A stretch of 18,430 nucleotides of DNA. It comes from a virus. A model generated the notes under the pieces. That model worked only from the letters and a program-made list of their open reading frames with translations. It was not told where the DNA came from and ran no database searches. This document shows, piece by piece, positions 7,514 to 8,731 of the stretch (position 1 is the stretch's first letter; every line of letters begins with the position of its first letter). The position numbers and the translations under genes are program-made. The stretch is from the UHGV virus genome UHGV-0119144; one strand, 5' to 3'.

Positions 7514-8731
7514 TTAATTACTGGCTGTTTCAGGTTTTGGGAAACTGAACAGTAAATCACGATAGTACTCGTATTGTTTCTGGCGCAACTCGATTTCACG
7601 CGGGAGACCTTCGGTGATGGAGTTGGTCAGGGCGTCGAATTTATCAAGAATAGATACAATTCGTTTTTGTTCAGCTATGCATGGAATTGGGATTCGGAAC
7701 TGTCTAAGATTTGTCAGATTGAGCATTCCATAGTTACGCATTTCAGATTTAAGCGTATTGTATAAATTTGTCAAGAAATAGAATATGAATTTATCAGCAA
7801 TAATATTTTCTTTAGTGGACTTTATGCTGGCTATATTTTGATTGGTTGTTGCTTCAAACTCAAGAAATGCAGTTTTAAATATAGTCGCACCAACAAGTGC
7901 GATTAAAGTGGTATTCTTAGGAAGAAGTTTTGCAGTGGATTTTTTTAATCCTAGCTCGCTTATAAAATATTTCGAAAAATAAACAGGTTTATTATTACAT
8001 GATTCCGATTTTAACCATGGAATTGACCCATTATCCCAGTATTCTGCTTTAGATTTTGAGGGGGTTCCTCCAGCGCAAATATGAAATAACTCTTCATTTC
8101 CCAAAGTTGTCCAATTAACCTCACCCTCTTTAAAACTCAACAACTGGTCGCGATAGTAGTTGTACTGTTTTTTACGCATGTTAAGCTCAGCGGTAAGCTC
8201 AGCGGTAAGCTCAGCGGTAAGTGCAGTAAATTTATCCAGAATCCGAACGATTTCAGACTGGATGGCAAGGGATTTTTCCGGATTATCCGGGCAGGGGATT
8301 GGTACAGGTATATTTTCAACCTGATGACTCATTAACTTGGGGTTTCCCATTCCTGAGTAAACATGTTTTTTGGCTTCTATTGTTAGCCAGTAAAACAGAA
8401 ATTTGTAGATTAATGGGTATTTACTTTTTAATGTAATCAGGCCGCAAACATTAGTTATTGAAAATTTACCTGTTCGATAGAACACAGTGCCTGCATTTGC
8501 GCCATCTGTTGTCCAGCTTATATATTCGCCATCAAAATCGAAGGTATTGATAGAACCTATTTTCCCATTATTTGCAGTTTGAGAGCTATAGACAGGATAT
8601 GGGCCAAAATTTTCAGTTAAATATCCCTTTGACATAACTCTGCCTCTTCTTAAGGCTGAGACTTCCCCCAATGGCAACCACTCAACCTCAACCCCATCCA
8701 GCAATTTTTCCAGATAACTCATCTCGCTCAT
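7514..8731 (-). CDS. hsdS: Type I specificity subunit (HsdS), type IC
   Basis: Conserved N-terminal ([18 protein letters not shown]), central ([31 protein letters not shown]...[14 protein letters not shown]) and C-terminal ([20 protein letters not shown]) regions flank two AT-rich variable target-recognition domains (TRDs); start overlaps the hsdM stop (ATGA). Confidence 0.93.
8185..8220. repeat. 12-bp tandem repeat x3 inside hsdS central conserved region, encoding [12 protein letters not shown]
   Basis: gctcagcggtaa repeated three times on the plus strand; in frame on the minus strand. Confidence 0.9.

Follow-up and report, generated by a model that had tools for sequence, protein, structure and literature searches.

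A functional-looking hsdS allele with a recombinant pair of target-recognition domains and a three-repeat spacer in an EcoR124-family operon of a P1-like phage-plasmid

The type IC family of restriction systems was originally defined operationally, by subunit complementation or antibody cross-reaction between its members. A separate hsdR promoter is known for EcoR124, and the targets of EcoDXXI and EcoprrI are TCA N7 RTTC and CCA N7 RTGC, respectively. The specificity subunit of EcoR124I carries two TAEL repeats and the enzyme recognizes GAA N6 RTCG, while EcoR124II has three repeats and recognizes GAA N7 RTCG (Loenen et al., 2014, PMC3874165). The same relation (two repeats for N6, three repeats for N7) holds for EcoR124/EcoDXXI hybrids (Loenen et al., 2014, PMC3874165; EcoSal Plus, 2025, PMC12707154), and EcoDXXI and EcoprrI both carry three repeats (Loenen et al., 2014, PMC3874165; table footnote in EcoSal Plus, 2025, PMC12707154). 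How the helix register accommodates a change in repeat number is still unclear (Loenen et al., 2014, PMC3874165), and for the type I systems of S. aureus the gap length is not predictable from the target-recognition domains (TRDs) alone (Cooper et al., 2017). Change of specificity through recombination in the conserved regions of the subunit is the classical picture (Loenen et al., 2014, PMC3874165).

Here, we analyzed 18,430 nucleotides of the UHGV virus genome UHGV-0119144 (this whole stretch is called the window) with an hsdS gene located between hsdM and hsdR (Table 1). In all probability, this reading frame represents a functional-looking hsdS allele within an EcoR124-family hsdM-hsdS-hsdR operon in the humD/phd-doc region of an E. 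coli P1-like phage-plasmid, and it combines a recombinant pair of TRDs with a three-repeat spacer. In the list of open reading frames the gene is intact from ATG to stop (405 codons). It directly follows hsdM and is separated from hsdR by a gap of 121 nucleotides. When the catalytic subunits were aligned with the EcoR124 chains, HsdM was covered over residues 1-520 and HsdR over residues 1-1038, and HsdR contains the EcoR124_C domain (Pfam). Similarly, HsdS could be aligned over its entire length with its counterpart in the cryo-EM structures of EcoR124 (7bst_A, E = 1e-98), and two stretches of the chain matched the Pfam family PF01420 (Methylase_S) with 199.7 bits. Judged by its sequence, the operon belongs to the type IC (EcoR124 family) restriction systems; this assignment is based on the gene order, the HsdS frame and the near-identical catalytic subunits. 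Just past the hsdS stop codon, the intergenic region contains a short inverted repeat (GACCGGA ... TCCGGTC), which could be a terminator or an attenuator ahead of a separate hsdR promoter.

Table 1. Positions and properties of the features of the window
Feature	Position	Strand	GC	GC3	Remarks
Sialyltransferase-like, NinI-like phosphatase, glycosyltransferase and polynucleotide kinase/HAD genes	437-4008				upstream of hsdR
hsdR, 1038 aa	4276..7392	-	0.436		full-length match (2280 bits) to EcoR124 HsdR
Inverted repeat	7440-7500	-			in the hsdS-hsdR intergenic region
hsdS CDS, 405 aa + stop	7514..8731	-			ATG overlaps the hsdM stop codon (ATGA)
C-terminal frame, aa 346-405	7517..7696	-	0.433	0.417	conserved
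TRD2, aa 207-345	7697..8113	-	0.326	0.273	variable; carries private D255Y
D255Y site	7969				gene nt 763, hsdS codon 255
Central frame, aa 143-206	8114..8305	-	0.453	0.484	conserved; coiled-coil spacer helix
12-bp tandem repeat, 3.3 perfect copies	8182..8221	-			encodes (L)TAEL x3; TRF: period 12, 100% matches
TRD1, aa 25-142	8306..8659	-	0.359	0.297	variable vs EcoR124
N-terminal frame, aa 1-24	8660..8731	-	0.486	0.625	conserved; aa 1-23 identical to EcoR124 HsdS
hsdM, 520 aa	8728..10290	-	0.457		full-length match (1154 bits) to EcoR124II HsdM
phd-doc addiction module of phage P1	10467..11068	+			divergent from hsdM; same arrangement in L002 and L006
P1 packaging region	12412-16682				rearranged vs sibling element L006
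Terminase-like fragment	13043-13519				
Transposase fragment	about 13444-14139	-			
Terminase-like fragment	14081-14956				
Ant/KilAC anti-repressor gene	15534-16430				
c1 repressor	16681-17532				

The hsd locus is surrounded by backbone genes of phage P1. Apart from c1 and phd-doc, these include a pdcB-like DUF968 gene and an lpa-like reading frame, and P1-type accessory genes are found upstream. The best DNA matches of the window were IncY/p0111 plasmids of E. coli, and we assign it to a P1-like phage-plasmid. The hsd cassette is located in the humD/phd-doc region, and this region belongs to the eight variable regions of low GC content that have been described for P1-like elements (PMC9603915). 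The lpa-like reading frame comprises only 104 amino acids, and in the rearranged packaging region two terminase-like fragments flank a transposase fragment; an Ant/KilAC anti-repressor gene is also present there. From this gene content, the phage-plasmid may be defective for packaging and the element may be decaying. The group of sugar-transfer, phosphatase and kinase genes upstream of hsdR is also carried by a sibling P1-like contig.

The alignment with EcoR124 HsdS divided the protein into three conserved segments and two variable ones, which correspond to the two TRDs (Table 1). It can be seen that the GC content drops to 36% in TRD1 and to 33% in TRD2, compared with 43-49% in the frame and 0.487 in the remainder of the window. 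All 354-nt segments with less than 36% GC across the 18,430 bases lie in hsdS, over the two TRDs, and the lowest value (0.305) was reached by the segment starting at position 7703. The original prediction had described the gene as the hsdS of a type IC system, with TRDs at codons 25-140 and 215-345 that are AT-rich relative to the frame. These statements were borne out: HsdM, HsdR and the HsdS frame match EcoR124, the domain borders obtained by alignment are very close to the predicted ones, and the AT-richness is localized to the TRDs.

For the distribution of the TRD modules, the 120 nearest relatives of the full HsdS protein were cut at the frame, and 109 of them split cleanly, which gave 110 sequences together with the window protein. 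Full-length partners were recovered with the whole protein as query, since protein searches with the TRDs yielded only short proteins (≤263 aa). The 110 split sequences comprised 20 classes of first TRDs and 26 classes of second TRDs in many combinations. The TRD1 class of the window occurred together with no fewer than 26 different second TRDs and its TRD2 class with about ten different first TRDs. In alignments with other alleles the breakpoints fell at the borders between TRD and frame; with p2017-02-1CC_2 the window gene has nt 1-54 and 430-1218 in common, and with ETEC1701 nt 1-633. At the DNA level, TRD1 (354 nt) was 99-100% identical in 94 records, which represent 93 of the 5426 complete E. 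coli genomes, and most of these copies are located in a chromosomal type IC operon adjoining Ag43. Relatives of TRD1 with 65-86% identity were found in Providencia, Salmonella, Citrobacter, Vibrio, Pasteurellaceae, Moraxella, Prevotella and Aerococcaceae. The TRD2 DNA (417 nt) was 98-99.8% identical in nine of the 5426 complete genomes and in six PLSDB plasmids, and one TRD2-carrying allele was seen on 170 contigs. A search in distant mode for diverged relatives of TRD2 in E. coli DNA returned only the same nine records. Judging from these counts, the domain modules are not new; it is their pairing and the extra spacer repeat that are rare.

The TRD1 module is not restricted to the first position. 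It also occupies the second TRD position in other type IC HsdS proteins of E. coli (P0284, P0306 and others), and in two proteins of 407 amino acids (P0228, P0230) it is present in both positions, with halves that are 90-91% identical. These two proteins are expected to be natural symmetric S subunits with a palindromic bipartite target. In this respect they resemble the engineered variants EcoR124I-delta50 and EcoDXXI-deltaC.

The feature that sets the window allele apart, as seen in comparison with its relatives, is its three-repeat spacer, for which a two-repeat sibling allele exists. This feature was absent from the original prediction. The TRD pair of the window was found in an IS-disrupted copy on pXD35003 (NZ_CP089136.1), an IncY plasmid of a swine E. 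coli and the only complete genome with this pair, and in three proteins of 401 amino acids (P0225-P0227, 97-99% identical). No one-piece record covering 80% of the hsdS gene was found in the E. coli, plasmid or phage collections, and an exact look-up of the 405-aa protein in a collection of 15 billion proteins returned nothing. The gene on pXD35003 has the same TRD pair and three TAEL repeats, and it differs from the window gene at five of 1218 nucleotides. However, an ISEc68 insertion at gene nt 301-304, accompanied by a 4-bp duplication, interrupts this gene, which is annotated as two fragments. The 401-aa protein WP_072667191.1 (P0225; E. coli GCA_001892765.1) is encoded on a P1-like contig. 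Both of its TRDs are 99% identical to those of the window, and its gene occupies the same genomic position adjoining phd-doc in an element that is collinear with the window (97.8% over 9.3 kb, single gap). In contrast to the window protein, it carries two TAEL repeats instead of three, an aspartate instead of a tyrosine at position 255 and a valine instead of an alanine at position 403.

The proteins P0225-P0227 all carry two TAEL repeats, and the four residues they lack are one TAEL unit. On the DNA level, exactly one 12-nt unit (gene nt 511-522) is missing from the sibling alleles. When the ISEc68 insertion and its 4-bp duplication were removed from the pXD35003 gene (three repeats), its sole difference from the hsdS gene of contig MOHR01000048 (two repeats) was the 12-nt unit, which indicates a very recent change in repeat number while the rest of the gene stayed the same. 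The same five positions distinguish both genes from the window, and these differences correspond to D255Y in TRD2, V403A at the C-terminus and three silent changes. The D255Y exchange is private to the window. Position 255 is an aspartate in 27 of 27 close relatives of TRD2 and a lysine, asparagine or histidine in more distant homologues, and the exchange may affect specificity or binding, but we do not expect it to. Among the 110 split sequences two repeats were the rule, three were present in about four and a single one in two sequences, and other TRD pairs were also found with differing repeat numbers. Solely by analogy with the type IC precedents, we expect the window allele to read the half-sites of its 401-aa sibling across a gap that is 1 bp longer; in its target, the methylated adenines would be spaced by about 8 bp.

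Which half-sites are read was approached by comparison with characterized TRDs. In a search of the PDB structures, TRD1 gave only noise at E ≤ 10. TRD2 shared 32% identity with TRD2 of EcoR124 (RTCG/CGAY) and about 45% with one domain of 1YF2, an S subunit from M. jannaschii. No transferable match was obtained with the 36 S. aureus TRDs with assigned half-sites (Cooper et al., 2017, supplement) and the two EcoR124 TRDs. The best S. aureus matches were O (CAAC, 40%) and T (CAAG, 34%) for TRD2, and Q (ACAY, 33%) and E (TCAY, 32%) for TRD1. Since both TRDs differ from those of EcoR124, the half-sites are not GAA and RTCG. The TRDs are not near-identical to those of EcoR124, as would be required for the EcoR124I/II specificity (GAA N6/N7 RTCG). 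The earlier statement that the TRDs could not be matched to a known type IC specificity held when they were compared with EcoR124I/II, where TRD1 lacks detectable similarity and TRD2 remains at 32%; near-identity of both TRDs to a characterized enzyme was not seen in the comparison, which covered EcoR124I/II and the 36 S. aureus TRDs only. The suggestion that the TRDs are possibly of novel specificity was overstated insofar as both already circulate in E. coli. From their distribution, a novel specificity at the level of the individual TRDs is unlikely.

It is an evenly balanced question whether the specificity is already on record, that is, whether one TRD, both of them or the whole pair belongs to an enzyme with a target recorded in REBASE, EcoDXXI or EcoprrI. 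The frequency of the modules speaks for this explanation. Many of the 93 complete E. coli genomes with TRD1 are long-read assemblies, TRD2 is present in complete genomes and on numerous contigs, and with relatives of TRD1 spread across many genera at least one half-site has probably been caught by methylome surveys. Because TRD1 is so widespread, it is its half-site at least that has probably been captured somewhere already. On the other hand, the best matches to the characterized TRDs remained at 40% (TRD2) and about 32% (TRD1), and none of the source names among the 344 retrieved proteins points to a characterized enzyme. Neither TRD of the window is present in a plasmid allele to which its depositor gave the label 'EcoprrI subunit S', although this label is doubtful (two repeats vs three reported for EcoprrI) and unverified. 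Moreover, the sole complete genome with the exact TRD pair, that of pXD35003, would yield no motif, since its gene is IS-disrupted. A full-text literature search with six TRD peptides found no paper, a search by the names of TRD-carrying strains found no methylome data, and the methylome papers on ST131, O111 and K. pneumoniae contained nothing on the hsd cassette of the window. Avoidance of sites would be of little use for deriving the motif, as the element methylates its own DNA and 18 kb are too short for this purpose, and a predicted fold would not reveal the half-site.

For the interpretation of the low GC content, loci with homologues of either TRD were fetched (ten loci in all) and the GC content of the TRD was compared with that of its locus. 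For TRD1 we obtained 0.366 vs 0.494 in an E. coli chromosomal island (99% amino acid identity), 0.399 vs 0.446 in Citrobacter (80%) and 0.328 vs 0.364 in Gallibacterium (75%). For TRD2 the corresponding values were 0.329 vs 0.508 in an E. coli chromosomal island (97%) and 0.295 vs 0.389 in Avibacterium (70%). The homologous TRDs were AT-rich in every locus compared, and thus the low GC content says nothing on novelty. Across these loci, it presents itself as a generic trait of TRDs and not as a peculiarity of the window allele. We consider it improbable that the AT-richness goes back to a recent acquisition of the TRDs from a donor of low GC content, by which the window allele would stand out from its relatives. 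The GC3 values of the TRDs (0.27-0.30 vs 0.42-0.62 in the frame) and the occurrence of homologues with 70-75% identity in Pasteurellaceae loci of 36-39% GC are compatible with such an import. However, the GC content of these TRDs is equally low in the chromosomal islands of E. coli and still low in Citrobacter, the Pasteurellaceae TRDs too fall below the mean of their own, already AT-rich loci, and the near-identity of the TRD1 DNA over 94 E. coli records indicates that it has long been established in the species pool. As a side observation, the Gallibacterium locus (L008, 7239-8384) and the Avibacterium locus (L009, 6583-8697) contain half-size hsdS genes with TRD1-like or TRD2-like domains. 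In both loci a PF13166 (PrrC/RloC-type) gene is located between hsdS and an EcoR124_C-type hsdR, and this arrangement resembles the prr locus of E. coli.

In three of the ten fetched loci, the TRD-carrying hsdS gene was interrupted or truncated by insertion elements: by ISEc68 in pXD35003 (L001, 1952-2932), by an IS3 family element in the ETEC1701 plasmid (L002, 3810-5038) and by IS1 in Citrobacter (L007, 5206-5903). These cases suggest frequent inactivation of the specificity gene. That the window allele itself is inactive or decaying and has no working specificity is very unlikely, for although its nearest three-repeat copy and another TRD1 allele are disrupted by ISEc68 and IS3, respectively, the adjoining P1 packaging genes are fragmented and the exact protein is absent from the 15-billion-protein collection, its hsdM, hsdS and hsdR are all full-length reading frames with end-to-end matches to the EcoR124 proteins, EcoR124II, EcoDXXI and EcoprrI function with three TAEL repeats (Loenen et al., 2014, PMC3874165), and the five nucleotide differences from its siblings lead to only two amino acid changes (D255Y at a variable site and V403A).

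For a functional-looking, recombinant hsdS allele the following mechanism can be proposed. HsdS would join two HsdM subunits to form a methyltransferase, and addition of HsdR would convert this complex into a restriction enzyme. TRD1 would read a half-site of 3-4 bp, which is expected to be the 5' one, and TRD2 a half-site of 4-5 bp, expected to be the 3' one. The two TRDs would be held at a fixed distance from each other by the coiled-coil frame, and this distance would be set by the repeat array. Two known routes probably led to the present allele. By homologous recombination in the conserved frame, a common TRD1 module would have been joined to a rarer TRD2 module, and the gain of one 12-bp unit would have given three TAEL repeats, compared with the two that dominate in the related alleles examined.

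More tentatively, and with some doubt on our side, the window allele and the 401-aa alleles may constitute a second natural pair of the EcoR124I/II type, which reads its half-sites with gaps of n and n+1 bp and of which both targets are perhaps absent from REBASE. If there is such a second pair, P1-like phage-plasmids would diversify their restriction specificity by shuffling of TRDs and by slippage of the 12-bp repeat, and these changes would have occurred so recently that the repeat is the sole difference between otherwise identical genes. Should the target be new, the type IC catalogue would gain one more specificity, and a natural pair of two-repeat and three-repeat alleles would become available to probe how the length of the coiled coil sets the gap of a type I target. 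Beyond this, we are dealing with routine allele diversity in a thoroughly understood system and with a new allele of a well-known kind. P1-like phage-plasmids carry an EcoR124-type cassette with a specificity gene that is being reshuffled, which bears on the DNA accepted by these elements and their hosts.

When compared with systems of determined specificity, the window allele shares the swap of whole TRDs through a conserved frame with StySQ/StySJ (type IA) and with the EcoDR/EcoRD hybrids (type IC) (Loenen et al., 2014, PMC3874165). However, these arose by construction or selection in the laboratory and have determined targets, whereas the window carries a natural allele read from sequence. 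EcoR124I and EcoR124II have the same TRD pair and are one 12-nt unit apart, as are the window allele (three repeats) and WP_072667191.1 with its relatives (two repeats). The EcoR124 pair represents a specificity switch by unequal crossing-over, while the window allele and its 401-aa counterparts are known only as sequences from different isolates. The closest described system is EcoR124II (R124/3, type IC, GAA N7 RTCG), with which the window operon shares HsdM and HsdR (full-length matches at very high score), the HsdS frame, the three TAEL repeats and the gene order hsdM-hsdS-hsdR. The two systems differ in both TRDs and in their carriers, since EcoR124II is located on the conjugative plasmid R124 and the window system on a P1-like phage-plasmid.
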